NCBI GenBank assembly: GCA_964472415.1 | Contig: CAYYLC010000001.1 | Location: 3,269 to 67,268, forward strand | DNA length: 64,000 bases | Source of the DNA: an uncultured Gammaproteobacteria bacterium | Lineage (GTDB): Bacteria > Patescibacteriota > Microgenomatia > Levybacterales > GWA1-39-11 | Direction of reading: 5' to 3' | Shown here: positions 1 through 53,008 of the stretch, in pieces | Numbering within the stretch: the stretch's first letter is position 1 | Layout: each line of letters opens with the position of its first letter | Position numbers and translations under genes: made by a program | The notes under the pieces: model-generated | The model's input: the letters and a program-made list of their open reading frames with translations, nothing else | Database searches by the model: none | What the model was told of the DNA's origin: nothing

Positions 1-909
1 AACTTCAAGTCCGAGGCCGTGTCCGAGAGAGTGGGGAAAGGTGGGGAGGCCCATTTTCTTAATGTGATTTTCTGCGATGGTGTGGAGGTGTGACATTTTG
101 AAATCATCTCTGTGCCATTCTTTTAACTTCTGGAGTGCCAGATTTTGTGCCTCAAGGACTGTATTGTAAAGCGTGATTTCTCGCTCATTCGGCTTTCCGA
201 AGTATATGGTTCTACTCATATCGCTACAATATCCTTCATGTTTTGCCCCAAAATCAAAGAGTATAAATGAATTATTCTCAAGTTTTGTATTTCCAGGAAT
301 GTGGTGAGGAATGGCAGCATTTCCCCCAAAAGCAACAATCGCTGGGAATGCATTTTTTCCATATGAATTACAATAAAATTCTATTTTTGAAGCGATTTCT
401 CGCTCAGTGACACCGATTTTTATATCTCCGAGAATTTCCTTGTAACAGTTGTCTGTTATTTCGCACGCTCTTTTCGTTTTTTCTATCTCATCAGCAGTTT
501 TTATAGTACGAAAACTTTCTACAAAATCCTCTAACGCGAAGAGTTCAGGATCTTTGAGAGCACTTTTTAAATGTTCGAATTCTGCATAACGCAAATTATA
601 TTTTTCAAATCCGAAAGAGCGGATATTTTCTGTCTTACAGATATCTTGGATATGTGTAAAAAGCCCCTTTTTAGCAGTAATTTCTCGATATTCAAAATAT
701 TTTTTCCGATCAGAAATTGCAAGGAGAAACATCTTTGGCGCGAGAAGGTAGATGTTGCTATGCGTGAGGATTAGATAGTATTCACGTTCCTCGATAGAAG
801 AAGGAAAAACTCCTGATAAATAGGATATATTGTATGGTGAGGTGATAAAGAGTGCATCAATGTTAGTATTTTTGAGTTTTCTTTGGATAGTATTTACGCG
901 ATTTTGCAT
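1..909 (-). CDS. Xaa-Pro aminopeptidase / M24 family metallopeptidase (partial; C-terminus lies beyond the window start)
   Basis: Minus-strand translation from ATG (plus-strand cat at 907-909) is open to position 1: MQNRVNTIQRKLKNTNIDALFITSPYNISYLSGV...HHIPGNTKLE...FDFGAKHEGYCSDMSRTIYFG...HSLGHGLGLEV. This matches the creatinase-N plus pita-bread M24 fold. It is absent from the ORF track because no stop codon lies inside the window. Confidence 0.7.
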   Translation of the reverse strand, partial: MQNRVNTIQRKLKNTNIDALFITSPYNISYLSGVFPSSIEEREYYLILTHSNIYLLAPKMFLLAISDRKKYFEYREITAKKGLFTHIQDICKTENIRSFGFEKYNLRYAEFEHLKSALKDPELFALEDFVESFRTIKTADEIEKTKRACEITDNCYKEILGDIKIGVTEREIASKIEFYCNSYGKNAFPAIVAFGGNAAIPHHIPGNTKLENNSFILFDFGAKHEGYCSDMSRTIYFGKPNEREITLYNTVLEAQNLALQKLKEWHRDDFKMSHLHTIAENHIKKMGLPTFPHSLGHGLGLEV

Positions 910-929
910 ATTCGTCCTATTATATCAGC

Positions 930-958
930 TTGACAGTTTCCTTAGTTCATTTTACAAT
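930..958 (+). promoter_or_regulatory. sigma70-like promoter of guaB (TTGACA 930-935, 17-nt spacer, TACAAT 953-958); the ATG at 964 implies a leaderless mRNA
   Basis: Read directly from the sequence: cTTGACAgtttccttagttcatttTACAATacactATG. The -10 box ends 5 nt before the start codon and there is no SD. Confidence 0.45.
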
Positions 959-963
959 ACACT

Positions 964-2115
964 ATGGATCCGAAAAATAAATTTCTTCAAGGTCTTACTT
1001 ACGACGATATACTCATTCTGCCTGGATACACAGACTTTTCGCGATCTGACATAGATCTTACGACTCAATTCACAAGAAATATTTCATTAAAAATTCCGTT
1101 TGTTTCTTCCCCTATGGATACAGTAACAAAGGCAGAGCTTGCGATTGCATTAGGACAACTAGGAGGAATTGGAATAATTCATAGAAATTTAGCTATTGAG
1201 GATCAGGCTGGAGAAGTTCAGAAAGTAAAGCGAGAAGGATATCTTGTTGGAGCTGCAATTGGAAGCAGTAGTGGTTTTGAGGATCGCATAAAAGCACTTT
1301 CTGAAGTGGGAGTTGATGTGGTAGTGATAGATTCTGCGCATGGGTATACGAAAGATATAATAAAAACAATTAAATTCCTTAAGGATAACTACCCACAGGT
1401 CGATGTGATTGCAGGAAGTATTGCAACAGGGGATGGTGCAAAAGCGCTGATTGAAGCAGGGGTAGATGGACTTAGAGTTGGTATGGGTCCTGGGGCAATT
1501 TGTACGACTCGAATAATTTCTGGGATGGGTGTACCACAGGTAACAGCACTTCAAGGTGTCATTACCGTTTCTCGAGAATACAATATTCCTGTTATTGCTG
1601 ATGGAGGAATAAAATATTCAGGAGATATGGTAAAAGCGCTTGCTCTCGGTGCATCAACCGTTATGATGGGGAGCTTTTTTGCACAAACTGAAGAATCACC
1701 TGGAGATGTATATGAGTTAACGCGAGAAGAAGTTCCTCAGAGATTTCAAAGTATTTTTGATAAAGATGCTCATAAAACGTTTAAATTTAAATCATATCGC
1801 GGAATGGGGTCTGAAGGTGCTATGAAGAGGGGTGCAGATGTAAAATCTGAAGATGAATTTCATGGGAAGGATTTTTATAAGGAACGGGTCTTGGTTGCAG
1901 AGGGTGTTGAGGGGTTAGTTCCAGTTCGCGGTACTGTTTCAGAATTATTAGATCAGGCGATTGGCGGGATAAAATCAGGAATGTTTTATGTTGGAGCGAA
2001 AACTATTTCGGAGCTTTCTTCTAAGGCGCAATTTATCCAGGTTACGCAAGCGTCTCTTACAGAAGGTCATCCACATGGGATAATAGTTAGTAATGCAGGT
2101 AAGAGTTATCAATAA
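964..2115 (+). CDS. guaB: IMP dehydrogenase (short form without CBS pair)
   Basis: 383 aa with IMPDH TIM-barrel motifs ([25 protein letters not shown], catalytic-loop region GPGAICTTR). It is immediately followed by guaA. Confidence 0.85.
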
Positions 2116-2117
2116 GA

Positions 2118-3650
2118 ATGGTAATCGTTATAGATTTTGGATCCCAAACTACTCACCTTATTGCCCGTCGTATCAAAGAATATGGTGCAGTGTCAGAAAT
2201 TGTTACGCCGCAAAAAGCCATTTCTCAAATTATGCTCAAGGAACCGAGTGGAATAATTCTTTCTGGAGGTCCTTCATCTGTTTATGAAGAGGGTGCCCCG
2301 CAAATAGAGCAGGATATTTTTAGTCTCGGTATCCCGCTCCTAGGAGTATGTTATGGGATGCAGCTGATGAGTAAGATTTACGGTGGGAGAGTAGTTTCTG
2401 GAAAGAAAGAATATGGTCCTGCTACACTTGCGCTTAGGTCTGGTACAAAGGAACTCATTGTAGGAAGGGCACTTCCTGATAGTTTTACTGTATGGATGAG
2501 TCATGGAGATGAGGTAAAAAAACCATTTAAGGGTGCAAAGATTTTAGGATCTACTACAGATGTTCCATATGCATTTGTCGGAGATGTAAAAAACAAATTT
2601 TATGGTGTTCAGTTTCATCCAGAAGTAGAGCATACGCAGCATGGAGACACCATCCTTAAAAACTTCCTTTCTATCTGTGGTGAGAAAGTTTCACATGCAC
2701 CGCTTTCTATTTCACAGCTTGTTAAAAATATCCGGAAAAAAGTAGGAGACGAATATGTGATTGGTGCGCTTTCTGGTGGAGTGGATTCAACAGTTGCATC
2801 AGTACTCATGGCACAGGCAATTGGTGAGAAATTCATTCCGGTGTATGTAGATACTGGACTGATGCGATATGATACTGATGAGCATATTAAAAAGATTTTC
2901 TCACATTTGAAAATAAGCCCGGTTATTATAAAAGCAAAAACAGAAATGCTTAAAAACTTAAAAGGAATTACTGAGCCTGAGAAAAAGCGAAAGATTATTG
3001 GTGCATTTTTTATCGAAATGTTTGAGCGGGAAGTAAAAAAGCTTGCAAAAGAAGGAAAACACGTAAAATTTCTTATGCAGGGAACGATTTATAGTGATGT
3101 GATAGAAAGTCGGGGAACGAGACATTCGGCAACCATAAAGTCGCATCATAATGTAGGGGGTCTTCCAAAGCGAATGAATCTTCGGCTTATTGAGCCGGTG
3201 CGAGAATTTTACAAAGATGAAGTGCGAAAATTGGGTGGAATGCTCAATATTCCCCATGAGTTTGTGATGAAGCAGCCATTCCCAGGACCTGGGTATGGAG
3301 TGCGAATTCGCGGTGAGGTTACTCGTGAGAGACTTAATGCAGAGGTCCGAGCTGATAAAATTGTTATGGAAGAGCTTTCTAAAGCAAAGCTACTCGATAA
3401 TATTTTTATCTCGTTCCCGGTTATGACGGGTGCGATGTCTACTGCAGTAAAAGGAGATGGGCGGCATTTTGGAGAAGTGGTTGCATTAAGAATTGTTGAA
3501 AGCAGTGATGTCATGACTGCTGAATGGGCACGAGTTTCTTATGATATATTACAGAAAATTTCTTCAAGAATCGTAAATGAAATCGAGGAGGTTTCTCGGG
3601 TGGTATACGATATTTCTACAAAACCTCCCGCTACAATGGAGTGGGAGTAG
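2118..3650 (+). CDS. guaA: GMP synthase (glutamine-hydrolysing)
   Basis: 510 aa with an N-terminal class I glutamine amidotransferase (GVCYGMQ, HPE) and a PP-loop ATP pyrophosphatase (SGGVDSTV). The C-terminal dimerisation domain is present. Confidence 0.9.
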   Translation: MVIVIDFGSQTTHLIARRIKEYGAVSEIVTPQKAISQIMLKEPSGIILSGGPSSVYEEGAPQIEQDIFSLGIPLLGVCYGMQLMSKIYGGRVVSGKKEYGPATLALRSGTKELIVGRALPDSFTVWMSHGDEVKKPFKGAKILGSTTDVPYAFVGDVKNKFYGVQFHPEVEHTQHGDTILKNFLSICGEKVSHAPLSISQLVKNIRKKVGDEYVIGALSGGVDSTVASVLMAQAIGEKFIPVYVDTGLMRYDTDEHIKKIFSHLKISPVIIKAKTEMLKNLKGITEPEKKRKIIGAFFIEMFEREVKKLAKEGKHVKFLMQGTIYSDVIESRGTRHSATIKSHHNVGGLPKRMNLRLIEPVREFYKDEVRKLGGMLNIPHEFVMKQPFPGPGYGVRIRGEVTRERLNAEVRADKIVMEELSKAKLLDNIFISFPVMTGAMSTAVKGDGRHFGEVVALRIVESSDVMTAEWARVSYDILQKISSRIVNEIEEVSRVVYDISTKPPATMEWE

Positions 3651-3673
3651 AAATAAATGAGAGAGGTAGAGAG

Positions 3674-3841
3674 CTATCTACCTGCCACGCCAAGGACTGA
3701 AGTATCTGCAGATTGGTTCGAAAACATGGCAATCGTCACTACAAAACACATAATTGCAACGAAAACGAGAAAATAAAACCCTTTTCGAGTCTGGAATGCT
3801 GGATATTTCTGTGTTATTTTCTTTTTGCTCCTTTTTGCCAT
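3674..3841 (-). CDS. hypothetical small membrane protein (55 aa, lysine-rich N-terminus plus one TM helix)
   Basis: My own minus-strand translation gives MAKRSKKKITQKYPAFQTRKGFYFLVFVAIMCFVVTIAMFSNQSADTSVLGVAGR*. It is convergent with guaA and below the ORF-track length cutoff. The SD is weak. Confidence 0.25.
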   Translation of the reverse strand: MAKRSKKKITQKYPAFQTRKGFYFLVFVAIMCFVVTIAMFSNQSADTSVLGVAGR

Positions 3842-3907
3842 GTCCTATTAATGCGCTTTTTCGGTACTTTTGTCAAGTGCAGAAGCTTATTCTGAATCTA
3901 GAGGTGC

Positions 3908-3936
3908 TTGACATCCAGGATATATTATCCTATAAT
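3908..3936 (+). promoter_or_regulatory. perfect consensus sigma70 promoter (TTGACA 3908-3913, 17-nt spacer, TATAAT 3931-3936)
   Basis: Read directly: gcTTGACAtccaggatatattatccTATAATacg. It lies about 90 nt upstream of the G+C-rich ORF at 4026. Confidence 0.55.
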
Positions 3937-4025
3937 ACGTAAGTTTTCTTGATAAAGCAGAGATTCGTCTCTGGGGAGTCAGGTTAGCACATTTCAAATC
4001 TGCAAGAAGCAGTGAGGAGAAAGTT

Positions 4026-4562
4026 TTGTCGGACGAACTGAAGGTCATTTCTCTTGAGGAAGCACAGCGGCTTCTGGGCAATAACGTGGTCGTGGCCTTG
4101 GATCCCAAGGCTGATTGGGTCTTTAACCCGGGAACCGGCGCTTCTGAGCGCCTTGACGGAAAGTTCTTCAAGGTCATTGCATATGACCGTGGGAATTTTC
4201 ATCAGCTCGGCATTTACGAAGAGCCGCGCATCGAAGCAGGCTCTGAGCCGCGAGTCGTCGGGAACGTCAAAATCTCGCGTAATGCGAGAGGTTTCATCCG
4301 CAGCCGCATAAATCGCGGCCTCGATGGGGACGAATTCCGCGAAGCGACACTTTCGAGCCTCTCAAATCCAGAGGCGGTGGAATTCGATGAGCAAGCAGTC
4401 AGGTCGGCTCTCATTCAGACCAATCCTCAGAGGATTGGAGGTTATGTCCGCGTCTTCCTCGTTGAGGAAGAATTCGATGACTCTGAAGGAGTCACTGTGG
4501 ATGAGCTTCGGAGAACAACTGATGGTCGGACCCTGGCAGCTCTTGCTGCTCTGATTCTCTAG
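4026..4562 (+). CDS. orphan G+C-rich hypothetical protein (178 aa), no family recognised
   Basis: TTG start preceded by GAGGAG (4014-4019). The protein has no internal Met and ends in the hydrophobic tail TLAALAALIL. Sampled 60-nt stretches give about 55-58% G+C, against about 37% at the start of fusA. Overlapping alternative-frame ORFs on both strands are treated as artefacts of G+C-rich DNA. Confidence 0.55.
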   Translation: MSDELKVISLEEAQRLLGNNVVVALDPKADWVFNPGTGASERLDGKFFKVIAYDRGNFHQLGIYEEPRIEAGSEPRVVGNVKISRNARGFIRSRINRGLDGDEFREATLSSLSNPEAVEFDEQAVRSALIQTNPQRIGGYVRVFLVEEEFDDSEGVTVDELRRTTDGRTLAALAALIL

Positions 4563-4579
4563 CGTTCAAGCAGATTTTT

Positions 4580-4619
4580 GGGTGCCTGGCGGTTTATTCC
4601 GCTTGGCACCCTTCATTTT
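4580..4619 (+). terminator. intrinsic terminator of the G+C-rich cassette
   Basis: Long imperfect hairpin GGGTGCCtGGCGG[tttatt]CCGCTtGGCACCC followed by the T-rich ttcattttc. Confidence 0.5.
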
Positions 4620-4659
4620 CTACTCTTTATTTTCCTCCCCTAATTTGATATACTTAGCC

Positions 4660-4684
4660 GAACCTTTAAACAGGTTCTTTTTTT
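4660..4684 (+). terminator. second intrinsic terminator (GAACCTttaaacAGGTTC plus TTTTTTT), plausibly the native guaA terminator
   Basis: Perfect 6-bp stem, 6-nt loop and a 7-T run, located 40 nt after the cassette terminator and before the fusA leader. Confidence 0.5.
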
Positions 4685-4748
4685 CGTTAAAAATATCCTC
4701 GATTCTGATTAAATCAGAATACAGGAGAAATTTATAGATATATACGAT

Positions 4749-6866
4749 ATGGCTGAAACAGTTGTTACAAAAGATAGAAACGTTGCGCTCGATAAAATCC
4801 GAAATTTCGGAATTATCGCGCATATTGATGCGGGGAAAACTACTACTTCTGAGCGTATTCTTTATTATACTGGAAGAACATATAAAATTGGTGAAGTTCA
4901 TGAGGGGGCAGCTACTATGGACTGGATGGCTCAGGAACGAGAACGGGGAATCACTATTGTATCTGCTGCGACTACCACATTTTGGAAAGATTATCGTTTT
5001 AATTTAATTGATACTCCCGGACACGTAGACTTTACTGCTGAAGTTGAGCGCTCGCTCAGAGTTCTTGATGGAGCAATTACGGTTCTGGATGCTGAGGAAG
5101 GAGTTCAGTCACAGTCAGAAACCGTTTGGCGACAAGCCGATAAATATCATGTTCCTCGAATTTGTTTCGTAAATAAGATGGATAAGTTAGGAGCAGATTA
5201 TGAAAAAACAATTCAGTCTGTGATTGATAGACTTGGGGCAAATCCAATAACGATCGGACTTCCAATCGGTGCTGAAAATGACTTCAAGGGAATCTATCAT
5301 GTACTAGATGAAAAGGCATATATTTGGTCGGGAGAAGAATTAGGGGCAAATTTTGAGATAGTTGAAGGAATTCCGGAAGGCATGGAAGAAATGGTGAAAA
5401 AATATCGTGAACAGATGATAGAAAAAATTGCGGAGACTGATGACGCCCTTCTTGAGAAATATCTGAACAGTGAAGAAATTTCATATGACGAATTAAAAAA
5501 AGCTCTGAGAGCAGCAACTATTGCCTATAAAGTAGTGCCAGTGTTTGCAGGAACATCATTGAGAAATAAAGGTGTGCAGCCACTTCTGGATGCAGTTGTT
5601 GATTTCCTTCCTTCTCCAATGGATCTCGAAACTGTTGTCGGTACAAACCCCAAAACGAATGAAGAAGTAGTAAGAAAGTTGACTCCTGAGGAATCATTTA
5701 CCGGATTTGCATTTAAAGTTCAAGTTGATCCACATGTAGGAAAGATTACATATGTTCGAATTTATTCAGGAAAGCTTACTTCTGGAAGTTACGCATATAA
5801 TTCTACAAAAGATGTGCGTGAGCGAGTAGGGAGACTTTTGCTTATGCATGCAAATCAACGAGAAGAAATTAAAGAAGCGTATGCTGGAGAGATAGTTGCG
5901 GTGGTTGGATTTAAAGAAACGATTACGGGAGATACGCTTTGTGAAGAAGCAAGTCCGATTCTTCTTCAGAAAATTACTTTCCAAGATCCAGTTATTTCTC
6001 TTGCTATTGAACCAAAGACGAAGACAGATCAAGAAAAATTAGGTGCTGCTATGAAGCGTCTTATGGAGGAGGATCCTACATTTTCTGTAAAGATTAATCA
6101 TGAAACAGGGCAGACTATTATGTCTGGAGTTGGGGAGCTGCAGCTTGAAATTATGGTTGACCGCATGAAGCGAGAGATGCACGTTGAGGCAAATGTAGGC
6201 GCGCCGCAAGTAGCATACAAAGAGACAATTAAAAATCCTGCTAACGCTGAGGCAAAGTATATCAAACAGACCGGAGGTCGTGGTCAATATGGCCATTGTT
6301 TGATAAAAGTTGAACCACTTCCTCGAGGTGAGGGATTTGAATTCGTTAACGCTATTAAGGGAGGAGCAATCCCGCAGGAATTCATTCCATCTGTTGAAAA
6401 AGGAGTAAGAGAAGCGATGGAGCGAGGGGTGCTTTTGGGATATCCAGTAGTAGATTTGAAAGTAACGCTCTATGATGGGACGTATCATGATGTGGACTCT
6501 TCTGATGTTGCATTTAAGATTGCAGGATCTCAGGCATTCCAGCAGGGTGCGAAGAAGGCAGAATTAACACTTCTTGAACCTATTATGAAAGTTGAAGTTA
6601 CCACTCCTGAAGAATTTATGGGAGATGTTATTGGTGATCTTTCCTCAAAAAGAGCACAAATTCAGGGGACAGAGGAGCGAGGAAATTCACGAATTGTTCT
6701 TGCACTCGTGCCGCTTGCAGAGCTTTCTGGATACGCTACAACGCTTCGATCTCTTACTCAAGGGCGTGCAAATCCATATATGGAGCCTTCTCATTATGAT
6801 GAGGTGCCGAAAAATGTTCAAGAACAAATGGTCGCAAAAACAAACTTCACCGCTCGAGTTGAATAA
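4749..6866 (+). CDS. fusA: elongation factor G
   Basis: 705 aa with the translational GTPase motifs ([21 protein letters not shown]) and EF-G domains II-V. Confidence 0.95.
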
Positions 6867-6899
6867 GCATATTTGTAGTTTTTCGGTATAATAAGCCAT

Positions 6900-8081
6900 A
6901 TGGCACGGAAAAAAATTTCAGAATTTAGAGCAAAGTCACTTCTTTATCAATTCCTACAAAGAGACTATTCAGGAATATCTATTGATGGAGATGAAGATTT
7001 TGATGAGAGAATTTCGCATCTTGATTCTTCAAAAAGATATGTTTTAAAAGTAGATCAAGGGATAAAGCAGCGCAAGAAAAAAGGGCTAGTATTTTTTAAT
7101 GTTACCTCTGAAAATATAAGAGGAAAAATAGAAGAATTAACCAATAGGGGATTTTCACACTTCATTATTGAAGAGTTTTTAGAGCACGAAAATTTTTCAG
7201 AAAAATATTTTGCAGTTGAACGCATTCGTGAAGGGAAAAAGATTTTGTATTCTCTAGAAGGTGGAGTTGATATAGAAGATAATAAAGAAACTATTAAAAG
7301 TTTTGTTGTAGGCAAGGATGAGGATTTGCGTGCGATAGCAAGTGTGTTAGAGGTAAGCTTTGAAGTAATTCGTGACATCCTTTCTGCATTTGATGATTAT
7401 TATTTTTCATTTTTGGAAATAAATCCATTAGTTGTGCATAGTGGAGAATTTTACTTCCTAGATACTGCTGTAGAGGTGGATAGCGCAGCTGAATTTTTTG
7501 TATCGGGCGCATGGGGAAGTAGTGATTTTAGGGAAAATGGCAATCGAAAAAAAACTTTAGAGGAACAAGAAGTAGAGAGGTTGAAAGAGGGGAGTCCTGC
7601 ATCATTTAGTTATGAAATACTTAATCCAGATGGAGCGATATTTTTACTGCTTTCAGGTGGTGGTGCATCGCTCGTTACAGCAGATGAGATTTATCAAAAG
7701 GGAAAGGGGGAGAAGTTGGCGAATTATGGAGAGTACAGTGGAAATCCGAATCAGGAGGAGACATATATATACACAAAACAAATCCTTGCAACGTTGTTGA
7801 AATCCAAAGCCCCTAAAAAATCTGTTATTATTTCCGGTGGAGTTGCGAATTTTACCGATGTGAGAAATACATTTCGGGGAATTATAACAGCTATGTCAGA
7901 AGTATCTAGTAGATTGCGGGAAGACAATGTGAAAGTATTTGTGCGACGCGGCGGACCGTATCAGGAGGAGGGGCTTTCTATGATGCGAGATTTCCTAGAA
8001 AAAGAAGAGTTGTTGGGAGCAGCTTGCGGACCTGATATGGTGTTAACAGATATTGTAAAACCAGCAATTGATCATTTGTAA
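6900..8081 (+). CDS. aclB: ATP-citrate lyase small subunit (ATP-grasp, SCS-beta-like)
   Basis: 393 aa that aligns well to the N-terminal region of eukaryotic ACLY (LANYGEYSGxP...GGxANFTxVxxTFxGI...FVRRGGPxYQEGL; YFLDTAVEVDSAAEF against YVLDLAAKVDATADY). Confidence 0.8.
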   Translation: MARKKISEFRAKSLLYQFLQRDYSGISIDGDEDFDERISHLDSSKRYVLKVDQGIKQRKKKGLVFFNVTSENIRGKIEELTNRGFSHFIIEEFLEHENFSEKYFAVERIREGKKILYSLEGGVDIEDNKETIKSFVVGKDEDLRAIASVLEVSFEVIRDILSAFDDYYFSFLEINPLVVHSGEFYFLDTAVEVDSAAEFFVSGAWGSSDFRENGNRKKTLEEQEVERLKEGSPASFSYEILNPDGAIFLLLSGGGASLVTADEIYQKGKGEKLANYGEYSGNPNQEETYIYTKQILATLLKSKAPKKSVIISGGVANFTDVRNTFRGIITAMSEVSSRLREDNVKVFVRRGGPYQEEGLSMMRDFLEKEELLGAACGPDMVLTDIVKPAIDHL

Positions 8082-8083
8082 CT

Positions 8084-9865
8084 ATGAATATTAATGCACT
8101 GAGAAGTACTTCAGTAAAAATAGTTGTTATTGGAAATCATCCAGCAATTATTCAGTCGATTCTCGACTATGACTATCTGTCTGGAAAAGATACTCCAAGT
8201 ATTCTTGCGGTGGTTTCAGGTGGGCGAAACTTTCAACGTTTTTTCTTTGGAAATAAGGAGATCTTAGTTCCGGTTTTTGATTCAATACAAAGCATCCCAA
8301 AAAATGTATGCAAGGAGATTACAATGTTTGTAAATGCAGGTTCTGGCAGACGAGTCCTAGTTTCTTCTGTTGAGGTAATTGATAGTTTTCCAAATCTGCA
8401 AATTGGGACAATATTTGCAGAGGGCGTCCCCGAAAAACATGTACTCGATTTGGGAGTATATGCAAAGCTAAAAAATATTGCCCTTATAGGTCCGGCAAGT
8501 GTCGGTATGGTTTTGCCAGGAGTATTTAAGCTGGGTGCAATTGGTGGGGTAAATAGTAAGCAAATTCAAACGTCTGGTATATTGCAGCGAGGTGGTGTGG
8601 CAGTGCTTTCAGCATCAGGGGGCATGGTGAATGAGGTAATAAATATCGTAGGAGCAAGTCATAATGCGCTTTCATTTGCATTATCTTTTGGAGGAGATAG
8701 ATTTCCATTACTTGAGCCGGTTGATGCCGTAAGATCTGCAGAATTAGATTCACAAACACAGGCAGTTGTTTATTATGGTGAGCTGGGTGGAGAAGACGAA
8801 TATAAAATTGCCGAACTCCTTAATCAGAATGAATTTAAAAAACAGATGATCTGCTATATTGCAGGCACTGTTTCTGATTTATTCGATACGCCTCCGCAGT
8901 TTGGTCATGCAAAGGCGATGGCAGAGAAAAATGAGGAATCAGCTCATGCAAAAAGACGTGTTCTTCGGGAAGCAGGTGCAATAGTTCCTGAGAGTTTTAC
9001 AGAATTTGTGCAGGAAATTCATAAATTGAAGAATTTTGGAACACGAGAGGTAAGTGATACAATAGAAATTGTGGAGGAAAGACATCATAGATTGATTGCT
9101 TCAAGTATTTCAAAAGACGAACAAGGGGAGATAAAAATTTTAGGCGAAGACTTAGTGCCTTTTGCAAAAGAGAATTCATTTTCGAAAATTGCCATATCAC
9201 TTTTTCTGGGGAAAAAGATTCAATCTTCTGATACTGAAGAATTAGTAGACTTTATTTTACGAATTTCTGTAGAGCATGGTCCCTATGTTTCAGGTGCTCT
9301 TAATACGATTATTACTGCTCGTGCAGGGAGAGATCTAGTTTCATCGCTTGCGAGCGGGCTTTTAACTATTGGTCCACGATTTGGTGGCGCTATAAATCAA
9401 GCAGCAGCCTCGTGGTTTGAGGGAGTAATGAATAAAAAAGATGCACATGATTTTGTAGAAGAATTTGCAGTACGTCGTGAATATATCCAAGGAATTGGGC
9501 ATAAAAAATACCGAATTGACATGCCGGATCCACGAGTTGTAGACTTAAAAAGATTTGCAGATAGGTTAGAGAAGAAGCGATTTATTACGTTTGCTCAGGC
9601 AGTAGAAAAGAAAACATCTGAGAAAAAAGGGAATTTGATTTTAAATGTTGATGGAACAATCGGGGCAATATTACTTGATTATCTTTCTGAAAAAGAAGGA
9701 TATACAGATGTTGATTTGAAAAGGCTTATTGATGCAGAGTTTTTTAATGCGCTATTTGTATTATCCAGAAGTGTTGGATTTATAGCACACTTCCTCGATC
9801 AAAAACGACTTGATGAAGGACTTCTCAGATTGACAGAAAATGATGTAGCCGATGCAAGTATATAA
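8084..9865 (+). CDS. aclA: ATP-citrate lyase large subunit (CoA-binding SCS-alpha-like plus citryl-CoA lyase/citrate-synthase-like domain)
   Basis: 593 aa. It carries the phospho-His loop QFGHAKA (ACLY has QFGHAGA), HGPYVSGALNTIITARAGRDLVSSLASGLLTIGPRFGG (ACLY: [38 protein letters not shown]), NLILNVDG, and FVLSRSVGFIAHFLDQKRL. Confidence 0.8.
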   Translation: MNINALRSTSVKIVVIGNHPAIIQSILDYDYLSGKDTPSILAVVSGGRNFQRFFFGNKEILVPVFDSIQSIPKNVCKEITMFVNAGSGRRVLVSSVEVIDSFPNLQIGTIFAEGVPEKHVLDLGVYAKLKNIALIGPASVGMVLPGVFKLGAIGGVNSKQIQTSGILQRGGVAVLSASGGMVNEVINIVGASHNALSFALSFGGDRFPLLEPVDAVRSAELDSQTQAVVYYGELGGEDEYKIAELLNQNEFKKQMICYIAGTVSDLFDTPPQFGHAKAMAEKNEESAHAKRRVLREAGAIVPESFTEFVQEIHKLKNFGTREVSDTIEIVEERHHRLIASSISKDEQGEIKILGEDLVPFAKENSFSKIAISLFLGKKIQSSDTEELVDFILRISVEHGPYVSGALNTIITARAGRDLVSSLASGLLTIGPRFGGAINQAAASWFEGVMNKKDAHDFVEEFAVRREYIQGIGHKKYRIDMPDPRVVDLKRFADRLEKKRFITFAQAVEKKTSEKKGNLILNVDGTIGAILLDYLSEKEGYTDVDLKRLIDAEFFNALFVLSRSVGFIAHFLDQKRLDEGLLRLTENDVADASI

Positions 9866-17682: not shown

Positions 17683-18921
17683 TTAGGGGTAATTTGCATA
17701 GCAGGCAGCTAATGCCTGTTCTGCAGATCTTCCTAGAGGATTGAAGCTATTGATGAATTCCGCATCGCTTGGTAGGCGAAGGTCGATGAGCCACCAATGA
17801 ATGCCTCGTAGTTTGCCGGAGAACACCGCACACGTCGCTTCATAGAAACGCCGTTGGGTCTCCTCGTCAAATGGTGCGCTCGATTCCCACGCATAGGGAG
17901 TTCTGTGTGCGCCAAGATGGGGGATTATGCCAATCTCAGCAAATACGATTGAATCCAGGCTTCGTCCGCTGTCTGTGATGACTTGGATCCAGGGTTGCCA
18001 TGCAGCAATCAGTCGGTCAACCGTTGTGTAGTCAGGAGCATTCAGTCTGAAATAAGCATCTATGCTCTCAAAATCTAACTCCTTTTTCCAGGGTGTTACA
18101 GAAAGCGGGAAGTTAACCCAGGAAGGGTCCCAGTTTGTTGAATACGTAATCTGTCCGGTATAGACAGATCTGACATTGGTGATGAGCGCGAGCCACTCAT
18201 CGTTGAAGCTCTCCATCGTGCTAAACTCGCTTCCGATGCTAAAGAACTCTGCATTGTGCTCTTCAGCAAATTGTGCGTAGTCGGTAATAAGCGTCTTATA
18301 GCTTTCAAACCAGGCTTGGGGATTTGTCGGCTGTATACTTCCCCGCCAGTTTCCTTCAGGGATAAAAGCCTCTTCGTCCATCAATGGACGAAGCGTTATC
18401 GTGAAGCCACGTTTGTGTGCTTCATCGATAAAATAGGCGATATCTTCTCGCTTGGGTGTATTCTTCGGATGATCATATACCACTGTTGATTGGTATCCAT
18501 CTTGATAAATGGGGAATGCTACGCTGATGTGGTTGATATGAAGATCCATCAGACGTTCAAGATTCGGGATGACCTTTTCTCTGAACTCTGGATCCTGAAA
18601 GTAAAAGACTACGTTTACTCCCGCCTGGAAAGAATATTGTGTTTCCATGGGGTTTTTTACAGACCGTGGAGTTGGGATGGGGGTAGGTATCGTGATTGTT
18701 GATAATTCCTTTCCCCTTGGTGTTTTCGTCGGCTGTTGAGTCGGTGTGAGTGTGGGTGTGGGAATCCTGCGCGGTGGAGAGACGGGTGAAGAATCGGGTA
18801 TAGGAGTTGGATCCTTCACTTCTTGTTCACTCGAATGCTTATTCTGTGCGACAAGTATCCCTGTTCCCATAAGCACAATCAGGAGAAATGCGACTACCTG
18901 TTGAAAGGTGGATTTTGACAC
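17683..18921 (-). CDS. secreted/anchored TIM-barrel glycoside hydrolase (GH5/GH113-like) with a Pro/Thr-rich linker
   Basis: 412 aa with a signal/TM segment, a PTPTLTPTQQPTKTP linker, and a catalytic-domain-like body. G+C is visibly higher than in neighbouring genes (about 58% in one sampled 60-mer). Confidence 0.4.
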   Translation of the reverse strand: MSKSTFQQVVAFLLIVLMGTGILVAQNKHSSEQEVKDPTPIPDSSPVSPPRRIPTPTLTPTQQPTKTPRGKELSTITIPTPIPTPRSVKNPMETQYSFQAGVNVVFYFQDPEFREKVIPNLERLMDLHINHISVAFPIYQDGYQSTVVYDHPKNTPKREDIAYFIDEAHKRGFTITLRPLMDEEAFIPEGNWRGSIQPTNPQAWFESYKTLITDYAQFAEEHNAEFFSIGSEFSTMESFNDEWLALITNVRSVYTGQITYSTNWDPSWVNFPLSVTPWKKELDFESIDAYFRLNAPDYTTVDRLIAAWQPWIQVITDSGRSLDSIVFAEIGIIPHLGAHRTPYAWESSAPFDEETQRRFYEATCAVFSGKLRGIHWWLIDLRLPSDAEFINSFNPLGRSAEQALAACYANYP

Positions 18922-19067: not shown

Positions 19068-22000
19068 TTATTGGATAGCGGTTATGCGGAATATAACTTC
19101 TGTTGCGTCGCCAACAAAATCTTCATTACCGTCAACGGCAATATAAATTTTATCTCCAGCAGATAGTGTGCCGAGATTGAAGATTTCAGGATTTATCGTC
19201 CATGGTAGTCCAAGAGTTGTAAGAGATGCGATCTCCTCTTTGTCATTATTGAATACTCTCAAGGTTGCACTTGTTCCCCACGGAAGAACTCTTCGGATGC
19301 TAAGGTTTGATATTGAATACTCTCCAGTAATCGGCGTGATAAATGCGGATACTACGAGGTGATTATTTGCTGGCGGATGCATCTGAAGATCAAATACTCC
19401 GGATGGCTCTGGTGTGTTTGATTCTTCTCCTCCGCTTCCGCGCGGGGTAGAGCTTTTTCCAATATAGGGATAATTTCCGTTTCCTATCCAAAATGAAGAT
19501 AAATTATTAAATGTCTCGGGGTGATTACCGGATATAAATTGTGAGAATAAACTATCTAAAAGAACGCCATTATCGTCTGTTGATTCATATAATTCTAAGG
19601 TTGTCGATATTGTGTTTGATGAGTCGTTGAGCGTTGCTTGAGCACTATCGCTACTTATTTCGATATCATATGAATTCCAAATAAATTCACCTGTAGGAAT
19701 TATTGTAGGGGCTGGGCTTGGTGTTGGCGTAATGTTATGAGATTCTTTGAGGCTTACTGTCCAGGTAACCTCCGTCGCATCGCCGACAAAGTCTCCATCA
19801 CGATCAACTGCAAAATAAATTCTATCACCCTCTGAGAGTTCACCAAGTTCATATTCTGTAGTATCTATTGTCCAATCTTGTCCTGTTGCTTGGATGGTTG
19901 CTATCTCGTTCTGATCAGTATCAAATACTCGAAGTGTAGTCGTGTTTCCCCAGGAAAGTACTCTCCGTGCTGCGAGATTTGAAATAGAATAGGCGCCATC
20001 TTGAGGAATAATAAATGATGCGGTGATAAGCTTGTCGCTTTCTGGGGGTGACATCTGTAGATCATAAACTCCTTCTGGTGCAGGGGTGTCTATCTCACTT
20101 GATTCAGACCCTCGTGCAGTTGTACTTTTCCCAATATATGGATATTCTCCGAAGTCTCCTGGATCTCTTGACCAGAAGGTTGAGACATTGTTAAACGTTT
20201 CAGGATGAGTAGCGTCATTCCATGCTGAGAGTAGCTCACCGCGCTCTACTCCATCATCGTTGGCTGACTCATACAATTCTAGAATTACAGGATTTGATTC
20301 ATTTTCATCAAATAATATTGCAGTAGCTGATTCAGAGCTTGTCTCAGTGTCATATGAATTCCAGGAGGTAAGGATAGATTCGTTTCCATTGACAGTAAGC
20401 GTAATGCTTTGAGCTGCAGTGTCATTTTCATTCGATGCAGTAAGCGTATATTCAGTTGTTTCTGTTGGGGAGATGGTTGCTGTTCCACTGGCTTCAATAG
20501 AGCCTAAGTGTGTTATGGTTACCTCTGATGCGTTTGAAGTTTCCCAAGATATGGTCGCGTTATCTCCAGAATTTATCTCAGATGGATCTAGAGTGAAAGT
20601 ATGAATTATCGGTGAACTGGTAATAAGAGATGCAGAGATTGTGGCATTAGTTAGTGTAGAAATCTCTTGGTTTTGTAGTCCGCCATTTGACCAGCTATCA
20701 AATATATAGGTTGCGCCATTGATTATTTGTGGTGAAGGAACAAAAAGAGAACTCGTTCCACCAGCTGTTATTGCAGCAGTATCAGGCGTTGTGTGAGTTA
20801 TGCCATTAAGGACTACGGTTGCTCCTTCAGGAGCGCTTTGAAGGTTCAAATTTACCTTCTTTGATCCAATAATTCTGTTTGTTGTTGTTTCTAAGCCGCT
20901 ACTGTCTCTTGTAGTAACGAATAGCTCTAAATCTGTTCCTTCCCCATGATCAGGCGCAGTAAAACTTCCTGAAGAACCTGTGCCTGAAAGGAATGGGTGG
21001 GTGTGACAAGTGTTTGATATCAATTCACAGTGATTGAGAATAAGATTCCAGGAAATGTTATCTTCGCTGATGACTCCATCCTCTGTATCTATTGCTTGTG
21101 CAGTAAAATTTATGGTTTCTCCTACGATATATTCATACCCTTCTATAGGAGTATTGATAGTGACCTCTGGGGGAGTATTTCCTGGATACACCGTGAGCTC
21201 TTGAGTTGTAGAATTTCCTTTCAGGTCTGATACGGTTAATGAAACTTCATATGTGCCACCAATAAGATATGTGTGATTCGGATTTTCACTTTGTGAGGTA
21301 TTACTATCTCCAAAATCCCATTCATAGAATAACATTTCACCAGATGGACTATAAGTACCTTCGCTTGAGAACTGTATAAATAATGGAACTGGTCCTGACT
21401 GAGGTGTTGCTGTCATATTCACAATCGGAGCACTCGAAGATGTCCCATATGTAATTCTTCTCAATTGCCCAGTGTATATTGAGACATAATAGATGTCTCC
21501 ATTTGGACCAGAAAATATTTGTACGGGGCCATCTGGTTGCTCTGAAAACACCTCGACGCTTCCTTCGATAAGCTTATTTTCTTCATCAACATCCATTGCC
21601 CATATGACGCTTTGGCTATAATCTCCAAAGTAATATTTGTTGTGATATTGTTCAGGATATGATGTCCCCGCGTAGAAGGTGCCGCCCACAATAGAAGATC
21701 CTGGTGGATGAGGATATACGTGAATTGGCGGAATTACTGTGTTGGATGCTTCTAAGTCTTGGCATAATTCATAGGCGGAATATCCGAGGACGAACTCGTT
21801 TCCTTCAAAGCATGGCCATCCATAATTATTCCCAGGTGTTACTACGTTAATCTCTTCCCAGGTTCCCCATCCTACATCCCCAGCAAAAATAGTATTCTCT
21901 CCCGGCTTAACACTAAATCGGAATGGATTTCTAAAACCATATGCCCATACTTTAGAACGATTATCATTTGGATTGCCAGTATAGAATGGATTGTTCGGCA

Positions 22001-24026
22001 AGCCTGTTCCATCGGTATTGATTCTCAATATCTTTCCCGATAATATATCGAGATTCTGTGCTCTGAGTGCTTGAGTGTTTACATTCGTATCTGGTGCGCC
22101 ATCTCCTACAGATACGAGGAGTGAGCCATCTGCCATAAATGCCATTCCGCCAATAGTGTGGGTTCTTGCATCAGATGGTATGCAGTCAGTGTCTGGATAA
22201 TTGTCGCAAGAAGGATTTTCTACGGTGCCATTATTGGTTCCCAGGATAATTTCCATAGTGTTAAGATCTGCAGTAGTTCCTTCTACTGTGAGTCGTATAA
22301 CTCGTGCTGATTTGACGCCTTCAAAATCAGTTGGATTAATGTCATAAGAGTATGCAGCATAGAGGTGTCCATTTTGCGCAAAGTTGGGATCAAGTGCAAT
22401 GGAGAGAAGGCCTCTATCTTGGTATGTATTTACGTTTGGGATTACTACCAGAGGATCAGGAAGGAGTGTGCCATTTTCTACAACGCGTATAGTTCCATCT
22501 TTTTCAGCGACAAATATTTTTCCATCTGGAGCGATTGCGGCATATGTGGGAAGATTAAATCCAGTCGCAAGTACTTCAGTTTGGAAACTTTGGGATGCAT
22601 TTTGAATATAAGCATCGTTCAGCGTTACGTCGTCGAAATACATTGTGTGGTTATTTGTTGGTGTAGAGAAATAAGAACCCCATGTCATAACATGGATATC
22701 GTCGCGTCCAGCAAGCCCTGTATTAATCTCTGTAAAGTGTACGATCTTTTCACCATCGAGCCAAACTTCGATCTGTCCGTGTTCTTCATCAACAGTTACC
22801 CGTGATTGAATTTCATGCCAAGAACCATCTCGCGGAATTGCTGGACCGAAAGGACCAGGGAAATGCGTTTCTCCATCAGAGCTAAAATAGACTGGACTTA
22901 ATCGATAGTCTGATCCGATAGTAAGCCAGAGGATATTTCTAAAATCGTCAGTTTTATAGACGATTGCGTTGTGTACTGATCCGGGGTCGAGGTTGTAATC
23001 TTCCGGAAGACTGATGTGCGTTTTTTGATAAATGGTGCTTCGTTTATCAAAAAATTGATCAATAACTGCTGTAGGTTCTGAGCCGCCAGTACTTATTTCG
23101 AGAGCGTAATTTCCTGTTCTGACGTGATTGCTATTCACCTCCAAAGTGTTTCCTTGACGTACGTCAATATTTGGTTGAGGATAGGCAGAAGTGTCACCCT
23201 CTTCAAATCCATTTGAAAAAATAGGCATTGTTGAATTGATGGTAGTAAAGTTTGCTGTATAATTATTCTCTGATCCTATGGTGATAAATTGTTCTTGGTT
23301 TCCTCCATTTGACCAGTCTGAAAAAATAACAGTCCTTCCATCTGGTGTTGTTTGGGGTGAGGGTACGTATAAAGAGTGCATTTCGCCCGATGAAGTATGA
23401 AGTGTGTATGGAACTGTTTGAGTGACTCCGTCAACGACAATCTGTAATCCTGGTTCAGATGTGTTGATTGTAATATCACGTGGTGCCTCTTCTATTACAA
23501 CGCTCACAGAGCCTACCCACCACCGGTCAAAATATTCTACTATTACTTCGTGGCTCCCTGAATTGAGCGTAATATTTTCTGTATAGGTAGTTGCGAGTTG
23601 CACCTGCCACCCATCGATGATTTGATTTCCATCTACAAAGACTTTGATTCCGTCATCAGCTCGGACAGTGAAACGATATATGCCTTCAGAGACATTTATA
23701 ATTCCTCTCCACCGTGCGCTAAACTCATCAGAATTTACCACAGGATCTGGTGATCCTTGTTCCCAGTCATAATCAATTGAGGCTTCCTCTCGTGTAAGGA
23801 CCGGGTCACCGCTGAGAGTCATGTTGTTGAAATATTCTGCGTTCCACTGTACAGAAATTGGCTCAGCTTTAGCAGAAGGGAGGATATAGAGTGCCGAAAG
23901 TGCGGTAATACCAACCGCCGCGAACATTGCATTTCGAAGTTTTCTACGTTTCGTTATCTGCTTTATTGCGTAGTTAATTTTCGATTTAAAACTTATAATT
24001 TTTTTGGATAATTTCCTTATATTCAA
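19068..24026 (-). CDS. giant cell-surface protein (1652 aa): PA14, SGL/glucose-sorbosone-dehydrogenase-like beta-propeller, PKD, two tandem ~180-aa C-terminal repeat domains
   Basis: N-terminal TM or signal sequence. PA14-like segment (YFNNMTLSGDP...FTVRADDGIKVFVDGNQII). Propeller-like segment (GFNLPTYAAIAPDGKIFVAEKDGTIRVV). PKD signature (WDFGDSNTSQ...HTY...GTYEVSLTVSD). The two C-terminal repeats share ELYES..DD.GV...HPETFNN.S.FW...YPYIGKS...RG...LQM.PP...RVL.WG....LRVF......GDATEV. Confidence 0.7.
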   Translation of the reverse strand: MNIRKLSKKIISFKSKINYAIKQITKRRKLRNAMFAAVGITALSALYILPSAKAEPISVQWNAEYFNNMTLSGDPVLTREEASIDYDWEQGSPDPVVNSDEFSARWRGIINVSEGIYRFTVRADDGIKVFVDGNQIIDGWQVQLATTYTENITLNSGSHEVIVEYFDRWWVGSVSVVIEEAPRDITINTSEPGLQIVVDGVTQTVPYTLHTSSGEMHSLYVPSPQTTPDGRTVIFSDWSNGGNQEQFITIGSENNYTANFTTINSTMPIFSNGFEEGDTSAYPQPNIDVRQGNTLEVNSNHVRTGNYALEISTGGSEPTAVIDQFFDKRSTIYQKTHISLPEDYNLDPGSVHNAIVYKTDDFRNILWLTIGSDYRLSPVYFSSDGETHFPGPFGPAIPRDGSWHEIQSRVTVDEEHGQIEVWLDGEKIVHFTEINTGLAGRDDIHVMTWGSYFSTPTNNHTMYFDDVTLNDAYIQNASQSFQTEVLATGFNLPTYAAIAPDGKIFVAEKDGTIRVVENGTLLPDPLVVIPNVNTYQDRGLLSIALDPNFAQNGHLYAAYSYDINPTDFEGVKSARVIRLTVEGTTADLNTMEIILGTNNGTVENPSCDNYPDTDCIPSDARTHTIGGMAFMADGSLLVSVGDGAPDTNVNTQALRAQNLDILSGKILRINTDGTGLPNNPFYTGNPNDNRSKVWAYGFRNPFRFSVKPGENTIFAGDVGWGTWEEINVVTPGNNYGWPCFEGNEFVLGYSAYELCQDLEASNTVIPPIHVYPHPPGSSIVGGTFYAGTSYPEQYHNKYYFGDYSQSVIWAMDVDEENKLIEGSVEVFSEQPDGPVQIFSGPNGDIYYVSIYTGQLRRITYGTSSSAPIVNMTATPQSGPVPLFIQFSSEGTYSPSGEMLFYEWDFGDSNTSQSENPNHTYLIGGTYEVSLTVSDLKGNSTTQELTVYPGNTPPEVTINTPIEGYEYIVGETINFTAQAIDTEDGVISEDNISWNLILNHCELISNTCHTHPFLSGTGSSGSFTAPDHGEGTDLELFVTTRDSSGLETTTNRIIGSKKVNLNLQSAPEGATVVLNGITHTTPDTAAITAGGTSSLFVPSPQIINGATYIFDSWSNGGLQNQEISTLTNATISASLITSSPIIHTFTLDPSEINSGDNATISWETSNASEVTITHLGSIEASGTATISPTETTEYTLTASNENDTAAQSITLTVNGNESILTSWNSYDTETSSESATAILFDENESNPVILELYESANDDGVERGELLSAWNDATHPETFNNVSTFWSRDPGDFGEYPYIGKSTTARGSESSEIDTPAPEGVYDLQMSPPESDKLITASFIIPQDGAYSISNLAARRVLSWGNTTTLRVFDTDQNEIATIQATGQDWTIDTTEYELGELSEGDRIYFAVDRDGDFVGDATEVTWTVSLKESHNITPTPSPAPTIIPTGEFIWNSYDIEISSDSAQATLNDSSNTISTTLELYESTDDNGVLLDSLFSQFISGNHPETFNNLSSFWIGNGNYPYIGKSSTPRGSGGEESNTPEPSGVFDLQMHPPANNHLVVSAFITPITGEYSISNLSIRRVLPWGTSATLRVFNNDKEEIASLTTLGLPWTINPEIFNLGTLSAGDKIYIAVDGNEDFVGDATEVIFRITAIQ

Positions 24027-24130
24027 GTTTATTTGAAAAATAATACTATGAGCAGTCTCGTAATTATATTAGGGACTTATAGCTATGTCAAATAGGATAT
24101 AAGGATTAATAAAAATAGATCTTTTTATAC

Positions 24131-52937: not shown

Positions 52938-53008
52938 CGGGGTGTAGTTTAACGGTAGAATGCGCGGCTGGGGGTCGTGCGGCTGGAGTTCAATTCTCCG
53001 CACCCCGA
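52938..53008 (+). tRNA. tRNA, tentatively tRNA-Pro (anticodon GGG)
   Basis: Hand-folded cloverleaf. Acceptor CGGGGTG/CACCCCG with discriminator A. U8, A14, G18G19. T-arm UGGAG-UUCAAUU-CUCCG. Anticodon arm CGCGG-CUGGGGG-UCGUG (two G-U pairs) with U33 and G37. 4-nt variable loop. Confidence 0.5.

Follow-up and report, generated by a model that had tools for sequence, protein, structure and literature searches.

Within a 64-kb stretch of DNA (64,000 nucleotides (nt) of contig CAYYLC010000001.1, hereafter the window), the open reading frame (ORF) between guaA and fusA, here called X, is a GC-rich gene with AT-rich flanking elements. The X unit (window positions 3908–4620) is a resident, monocistronic unit of an AT-rich, Levyibacteriota-like Patescibacteria genome; it was not acquired recently, and it is neither an engineered insert nor contamination. 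The GC-richness of the ORF appears to be held by purifying selection on synonymous sites against AT-biased mutation in the host. The best explanation overall, to which we give about an even chance of being right, combines a resident unit, selected GC-richness, an mRNA closed at its ends and a product with a Nudix fold that has no Nudix box.

GC-richness of X and its persistence

The unit and the region between it and fusA comprise the following elements, all on the plus strand.

3908–3936: sigma-70-type promoter TTGACA-17-TATAAT (-35 at 3908–3913, -10 at 3931–3936; 12 of 12 matches)
3943–3988: predicted 5' leader stem-loop domain, in both the minimum free energy (MFE) and the centroid structure of the whole-transcript fold
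3996–4008: predicted 5' arm of the closing helix, core AAATCTGC at 3996–4003, complementary to 4565–4577
4014–4019: Shine-Dalgarno GAGGAG, 6 nt upstream of the TTG at 4026, as read from the sequence
4026–4562: ORF X, 178 amino acids (aa), TTG start; GC 54.0%, and 65/40/56% at first, second and third codon positions (GC1/GC2/GC3)
4565–4577: predicted 3' arm of the closing helix, right after the stop codon, perfect core GCAGATTT at 4570–4577
4580–4611: GC-rich 3' hairpin, 13-nt arms GGGTGCCTGGCGG and CCGCTTGGCACCC, 6-nt loop, tail TTCATTTTCT
4646–4654: extended -10-like motif TGATATACT (TGnTATACT), TGTTATACT in the syntenic relative L001
4660–4684: canonical intrinsic-terminator-like hairpin with a run of seven T, immediately upstream of fusA

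The GC3 of X (0.564) is the highest among the 60 ORFs of the window (mean, 0.306; standard deviation, 0.06; about +4.3 standard deviations), and no other 300-nt stretch of the window is as rich in GC as the one in X. A previous reading made from the sequence alone had described this contrast with neighbours placed at 32–37% GC; the deviation of X stands, while the figure for the neighbours was slightly low, with guaB, guaA, fusA, aclB and aclA measured at 37–41% GC (GC3, 25–31%). Only the ORF and the 3' hairpin deviate, with a GC of 38% for promoter and 5' untranslated region (5'UTR) taken together (3908–4025), and third positions in X move mainly from A or T to C (C at 31–47% of third positions in X versus 8–9% in host genes). 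No overlapping or antisense gene was found that could cause the high GC, as none of the other frames is free of stops consistently, with counts near those of shuffled sequences. A literature search on persistently GC-rich genes in candidate phyla radiation (CPR) genomes found nothing pertinent. The second highest GC3 of the window (0.475; GC, 47.5%) belongs to a 412-aa, Pro/Thr-rich, secreted-looking protein encoded at 17683–18921 on the minus strand.

An ortholog of X (P0004; 62% identical) occupies the same junction, guaB-guaA-X-fusA-aclB-aclA, on contigs from eight independent samples (L001–L008, hereafter the L001 lineage), where the proteins flanking X are 69–94% identical to those of the window. 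The L001 genome has 36% GC and its X 59% (GC3, 70%), and the X and guaA clusters of this lineage share strain membership. Between the two genomes the promoter, leader and 3' region of X are kept; alignability starts at the -35 box, and the spacer on the guaA side is not alignable. The closest named relatives of guaA are metagenome-assembled genomes (MAGs) of Candidatus Levybacteria/Levyibacteriota and Patescibacteria, and among the X homologs one lies on a Candidatus Levyibacteriota MAG contig and another is annotated 'Patescibacteria group bacterium'. The sequence-only reading had offered a recently acquired foreign gene as one origin, an idea contradicted by a divergent relative with X at the same guaA-fusA junction and an even higher GC. 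It had also raised an engineered or contaminating insert, and the textbook promoter and sharp GC step could indeed suggest an insert of this kind or an assembly chimera. Because the ortholog at the same junction was assembled independently from at least eight samples, an artefact or engineered insert is excluded; a 99% identical X protein occurs in other data sets, including on a 303-kb contig, and a second perfect consensus promoter is present elsewhere in the window, so that this class of explanation can for practical purposes be dismissed.

Three further features of the neighbourhood were observed. The guaA-X spacer of the window contains a 55-aa ORF with a hydrophobic segment on the minus strand (3674–3841), in convergent orientation to guaA, with a hairpin after it at 3664–3683; this ORF is not conserved in relatives, and the L001 spacer has a called 75-aa ORF on the plus strand. 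Directly downstream of fusA, both genomes carry ATP-citrate lyase-like genes (window 6900–9865; L001 10818–13806) with the Pfam domains Citrate_synth_N/Citrate_bind and CoA-ligase/Citrate_synt. L001 has a split str operon, with rpsG about 8 kb from fusA.

The composition survey covered every X homolog with obtainable DNA, that is, ten further lineages besides the window. In all of them X is a GC-rich island, with a GC3 of 56–85% on contigs of 34–51% GC, all but one of which are AT-rich (34–47%). The values for the lineages other than L001 are as follows.

L009: X GC 54%, GC3 59%; rest of contig 36%
L010: X GC 62%, GC3 73%; rest of contig 41%
L012: X GC 62%, GC3 74%; rest of contig 43%
L013: X GC 65%, GC3 85%; rest of contig 41%
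L014: X GC 55%, GC3 67%; rest of contig 47%
L017: X GC3 85%; rest of contig about 39%
L018: X GC 52%, GC3 56%; rest of contig 34%
L021: X GC 60%, GC3 71%; rest of contig 42%
L024: X GC 60%, GC3 78%; rest of contig 51%

X occurs in about six genomic contexts.

Context A: guaA, X, fusA
Context B: DUF4342, X, a gene for a 469-aa protein
Context C: X, then a gene for a 75-aa basic protein, then an epimerase gene
Context D: X, rpmE, prfA
Context E: X, then dnaJ on the opposite strand
Context F: epimerase gene, X

Some of these contigs hold other GC-rich genes. The L012 contig, a Levyibacteriota contig of 43% GC, has a second GC-rich island gene, a 315-aa ORF of about 61% GC (1680–2627, plus strand), which from its N-terminal sequence we take to resemble a class I (archaeal-type) fructose-bisphosphate aldolase. 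In context C, the GC-rich gene for the basic protein of about 75 aa after X is kept in L013 (892–1119) and L017 (about 4070–4290), and in L017 the GC-rich island runs on into a 161-aa ORF (4333–4818) resembling the N-terminal region of GspE/PilB.

The age of the deviation can be gauged from synonymous sites. Among most X copies, four-fold degenerate sites are at the identity expected from composition alone and thus saturated (window versus L001, 0.25 observed and 0.28 expected), yet copies separated in this way still have a GC3 of 0.56–0.74, with no amelioration seen. By our own two-state calculation, which assumes that GC3 has its equilibrium at about 0.27 and that each lineage has had more than about 0.65 strong-to-weak (G/C to A/T) substitutions per site, under about 20% of an initial excess would be left, giving a GC3 of at most about 0.4, compared with the observed 0.56 (window) and 0.70 (L001). 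For the two unsaturated pairs, the synonymous substitution rate (dS) of X is about half that of its neighbours and the nonsynonymous rate (dN) is equal or higher: between L013 and L017, dS is 0.55 for X and 1.21–1.74 for neighbours (dN, 0.26 and 0.06–0.11), and between L010 and L012, dS is 0.76 for X and 1.64 for neighbours (dN, 0.20 and 0.17). A composition-aware correction of the four-fold data, likewise our own calculation, leaves a roughly two-fold difference in dS. Since saturation has come without loss of GC, dS is reduced and the untranslated regions of the unit are AT-rich, we infer that G and C at the synonymous sites of X are selectively maintained.

The X transcript

X has its own signals for expression. 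The predicted transcription start lies near 3943, which gives a 5'UTR of about 83 nt (3943–4025), and the TTG start lines up with the ATG starts of homologs. The description in the sequence-only reading of a self-contained unit with a perfect promoter, a leader with a GAGGAG Shine-Dalgarno and a TTG start, and a long-stem hairpin (13 GC-rich base pairs) after X was borne out; its remark that host genes at the head of operons are mostly leaderless fits guaB, where a TTGACA-17-TACAAT site (930–964) ends 6 nt before the ATG. Perfect TTGACA-17-TATAAT sites number two in the 64-kb window, and consensus promoters with at most one mismatch number five against 0.79 expected, so the X promoter is of a host style and not peculiar to this locus. 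The L001 equivalent, TTGACT-17-TATAAT, is kept in the same place. The second perfect site (24063–24091, minus strand) stands upstream of a 1652-aa, surface-protein-like ORF (19068–24026, minus strand).

Within the leader domain, an inner hairpin, CAGAGA-UUCG-UCUCUG, is predicted at 3958–3973 in the window (context A), and L001 has CAAGGG-CUCG-CCUUUG at this site, changes that, as read from the two sequences, are compensatory. The context-B leaders (L010, 1620–1800; L012, 5830–5990) are about 190 nt long, with two to three strong hairpins and two tandem -10 elements, and had no match in Rfam.

Covariation and thermodynamics support a transcript that would be closed by a helix between its 5'UTR and 3'UTR. 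In the window, the helix has a shuffle p of about 0.016, and all eight of its pairs are in the MFE structure with pair probabilities of 0.5–0.68. Perfect complements of 8–10 nt between the two UTRs occur in five of six lineages (p of 0.000–0.018 each), with the 5' arm reading AAATCTGC in the window, ATCTGGAG in L001, GCTATTGAAA in L009, GAAAGCTA in L010 and CTGTTGAAAA in L018; the sixth lineage, L012, has a 10-bp helix with two G-U pairs, and the distant L021 a 9-nt complement, CTCTGTTAC. Because the arms differ in sequence among lineages yet stay complementary, the helix covaries. Whole-transcript folds place every arm pair in the MFE structure, mostly with pair probabilities of 0.7–1.0. The 3' arm lies 1–19 nt after the stop codon, and the 5' arm of L001 shares nucleotides with the GGAGG Shine-Dalgarno. 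X would thereby add, for an uncultured phylum, a covariation-supported case of a bacterial mRNA closed by pairing of its 5'UTR and 3'UTR.

The 3' hairpin at 4580–4611 has a consensus of 13 pairs over six lineages, five of them with compensatory changes, and its base, GGGYG...CRCCC-TTCA, is common to contexts A and B. Its tail is TTCATTTTCT in the window and TTCACACAC in other lineages, and a scan with a terminator consensus did not call the hairpin; it is either a terminator with a weak U-tract or a protector of the 3' end. The hairpin at 4660–4684 had been taken as the original guaA terminator, a reading that finds no support, and it may belong with fusA instead: L001 keeps it, its loop and stem altered, some 10 nt ahead of the fusA ATG and behind the conserved extended -10-like motif. 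From this arrangement, 4646–4684 may act on fusA, as a promoter followed by an attenuator leader, and not as a terminator of the genes upstream.

A mechanism can be proposed in which the host-type consensus promoter and strong Shine-Dalgarno would drive a monocistronic transcript of about 670 nt, made up of an AT-rich leader stem-loop, a closing helix of 8–13 bp that loops the whole ORF, the GC-rich ORF body and the 13-bp GC hairpin at the 3' end. Pairing of the ends would hinder 5'-end-dependent and 3' exonucleases, endonucleases of the RNase Y/E type would find few single-stranded AU-rich sites in the GC-rich body, and protein X could reach high abundance, or still be produced while mRNA in general decays. 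Our best guess at the purpose is a compact, nuclease-resistant, long-lived mRNA, and the GC-richness of X would then have selection as its cause and mRNA stability as its benefit. A bolder version, to which we attach only a small probability, is an 'armoured' mRNA, with paired ends, a capped 3' end and an AU-poor body, that would survive bulk destruction of mRNA, for example by toxin or abortive-infection RNases or in dormancy, and deliver a Nudix-fold protein without the box that would act as binder or sponge for an ADP-ribose-like signalling nucleotide; if true, it would be a gene-specific adaptation of an mRNA at the level of composition, tied to a new Nudix-fold branch.

The protein product

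X encodes a real protein, and the protein signal is unambiguous. The product has 178 aa with no internal Met, as the sequence-only reading had remarked, and its statement that the protein belongs to no family assignable by sequence agrees with the absence of any Pfam, NCBIfam, PHROG, PADLOC or PDB sequence match. There are eight close homologs (49–99% identity), and an exhaustive profile search of 1.8 billion representatives yielded 64 relatives (46 at E ≤ 1e-10), nearly all of 170–210 aa. A family alignment of 41 sequences displays conservation of the protein type, with S111, R136 and D166 invariant and W31, R42, D44, E66, P67, G79, G101, S113, G139 and R168 nearly so, and dN/dS is 0.26–0.47. 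The PHROG search gave isolated weak matches only, the PADLOC search matched zero families, a PDB profile search returned nothing relevant, and the toxin/immunity role considered in the sequence-only reading gained nothing from the defence-system models, none of which matched X.

The AlphaFold model of X (predicted local distance difference test (pLDDT), 92; predicted template modelling score (pTM), 0.81) is a Nudix alpha/beta/alpha sandwich resembling ADP-ribose pyrophosphatases (Foldseek; template modelling (TM) score of about 0.45–0.5, matches in one and the same subfamily). The Nudix box, GX5EX7REUXEEXGU, is absent from all 41 members (by regular expression, zero strict matches, zero REUxEE cores and one relaxed match); in its place family members carry (E)LxPSSxSKGE, followed by a variable loop and NPQRI. 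For none of the 41 members was there a match to a Nudix model, with cut-offs of E up to 1 in Pfam and E up to 0.01 in NCBIfam. As modelled, X is thus a rare, undescribed and unannotated family with a predicted Nudix fold that falls outside the Nudix hydrolases, apparently a branch that lost the catalytic box. Because the box is replaced throughout the family, a cytosolic binder or non-canonical hydrolase of an ADP-ribose-like or other nucleotide ligand is more likely than a classical Nudix pyrophosphatase.

Alternative explanations and known systems

Several observations weigh against a resident X with selected composition and closed mRNA ends. No closing helix was detected in context C or context D, and the position of its 5' arm differs between contexts A and B. 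Additional RNA structure inside the ORF was entertained and given up: early z-scores of -3.6 to -7.4 looked striking, but the full range of codon-shuffle z-scores for X (-0.4 to -7.4) overlaps that of control genes (host and other GC-rich ORFs, -0.2 to -5.0), and since X is not clearly stronger than the controls such structure is not demonstrated. No AU-rich motif is specifically avoided in X beyond what composition gives; in a search for avoided RNase-type motifs none was absent, and there was only a generic depletion of TA-containing 3-mers and 4-mers. The protein database has only two lineages with a context-A X homolog against about 15 guaA clusters at 77–82% identity, and X may for this reason be a patchy, accessory gene with gains and losses. 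The identity matrix of X is star-like and does not group by context, and the lower dS could stem from exchange of X between lineages after their split.

The last of these observations are also what a mobile promoter-gene-hairpin cassette, or repeated horizontal acquisition from a GC-rich reservoir such as Actinomycetota that landed between guaA and fusA, would leave behind: a patchy presence among related guaA lineages, a star-like matrix with mild incongruence with a neighbouring gene, and a dS below that of the neighbours that could mean a younger coalescence. The strong compositional contrast, the spread over about six contexts, a homolog in Baekduia alba and another beside a TniB gene point the same way, and we regard this explanation as unlikely but a serious contender. 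It has to contend with a relative, diverged to synonymous saturation, that keeps the same junction, promoter and leader, and with UTRs that would have travelled along and are AT-rich, so that mobility would leave the confinement of GC-richness to the ORF unexplained. The Patescibacteria copies form one clade with a common 3' hairpin base and closing-helix design, not ameliorated in their AT-rich genomes; fresh import from a GC-rich donor would make each copy an independent arrival, whereas AT-rich promoters and leaders, the hairpin base and the design of the transcript are common to them. No integrase or transposase is in the ORF list for 1–9000, the only tRNA of the window lies at 52938, and a search for direct repeats or target-site duplications beside X found only chance-level 10–13-mers, none at the block boundaries. 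Phage and plasmid collections had no tblastn matches to X, viral contigs had none, and BFVD gave only weak Nudix matches, which also leaves the phage-derived function suggested by the sequence-only reading with no support. Codon-level regulation, in which an ORF kept rich in genome-rare codons would be translated slowly or in dependence on scarce tRNAs, would mirror, in reverse, the TTA/bldA control of Streptomyces. It would account for a deviation confined to the coding region, for third positions that shift mainly from A or T to C and for constrained synonymous sites; a consensus promoter and strong Shine-Dalgarno, however, point to high rather than throttled output, and GC1 is raised too, so that we consider it improbable. 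The likeness of the closing helix and terminal hairpin to the stalks that flank stable RNAs, a GC content (54–65%) near that of the tRNA-Pro of the window (62%) and a whole-transcript fold with z = -4.1 against dinucleotide shuffles could instead speak for a structured non-coding or dual-function RNA with a secondary or spurious ORF. This is very hard to reconcile with the unambiguous protein signal and the z-scores of the ORF, which are not above those of control genes; synonymous saturation among most copies leaves little room for conserved internal RNA structure, and no alternative reading frame is consistently open. Rfam 15 gave no match at E up to 1 in 3000–5500, only the tRNA at gathering threshold in the window, and no match across the X units at six related loci. 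The resident, selected unit with closed mRNA ends is the preferred explanation.

The nearest system to protein X is the ADP-ribose/NDP-sugar (nucleoside diphosphate sugar) pyrophosphatase subgroup of Nudix hydrolases, including Rv1700 of Mycobacterium tuberculosis (1mk1), Ndx2 of Thermus thermophilus (2yvm), YffH of Escherichia coli (3o52) and human NUDT5, from which X differs in having no Pfam Nudix match, no box and invariant residues of its own (S111, R136 and D166). The C-terminal domain of MutY/MUTYH and the ligand-binding domains of NrtR, NadQ and AraR likewise have a Nudix fold and are not pyrophosphatases, as is suggested for the X family; those domains are parts of larger DNA-repair or regulator proteins, whereas X is a stand-alone single domain with no DNA-binding module.

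For the mRNA, Bacillus subtilis hbs has a 14-bp pairing of its 5' and 3' UTRs by which cleavage by RNase Y within a highly structured leader is limited (PMC5737220), and in Staphylococcus aureus icaR the 3'UTR pairs with the Shine-Dalgarno region, a repressive variant (PMC3868564). The X mRNA would resemble both in that it is monocistronic, its leader is structured, its Shine-Dalgarno is strong and its UTRs form a long-range duplex, and the overlap of the L001 5' arm with the Shine-Dalgarno recalls icaR; by this analogy, the end pairing of X could be either stabilising, as in hbs, or repressing, as in icaR. Unlike in both, the X duplex tightly flanks the ORF, the ORF is GC-rich in an AT-rich genome and the support comes from covariation and thermodynamics. 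The mRNAs of hok-type type I toxins have a fold-back inhibition element that pairs 5' and 3' ends, and encode membrane peptides of about 50 aa accompanied by an antisense RNA. The 5'-3' end pairing of these compact, long-lived mRNAs is similar to that proposed here, but X is a 178-aa soluble protein with a predicted Nudix fold and no antisense gene is evident.

For composition, the usual frame for such outliers is the amelioration model together with atypical genomic islets brought in by horizontal transfer. Compositional outliers are routinely called recent horizontal transfers, and X offers a clean natural setting, in the reduced genomes of Patescibacteria, in which to test for selection on the composition of a single gene. 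X shares with transferred islets a sharp deviation in GC and GC3 and a patchy family distribution; unlike theirs, its deviation ends at the ORF boundaries, persists past synonymous saturation at a syntenic locus and recurs, without attached mobility genes, in every Patescibacteria member examined.

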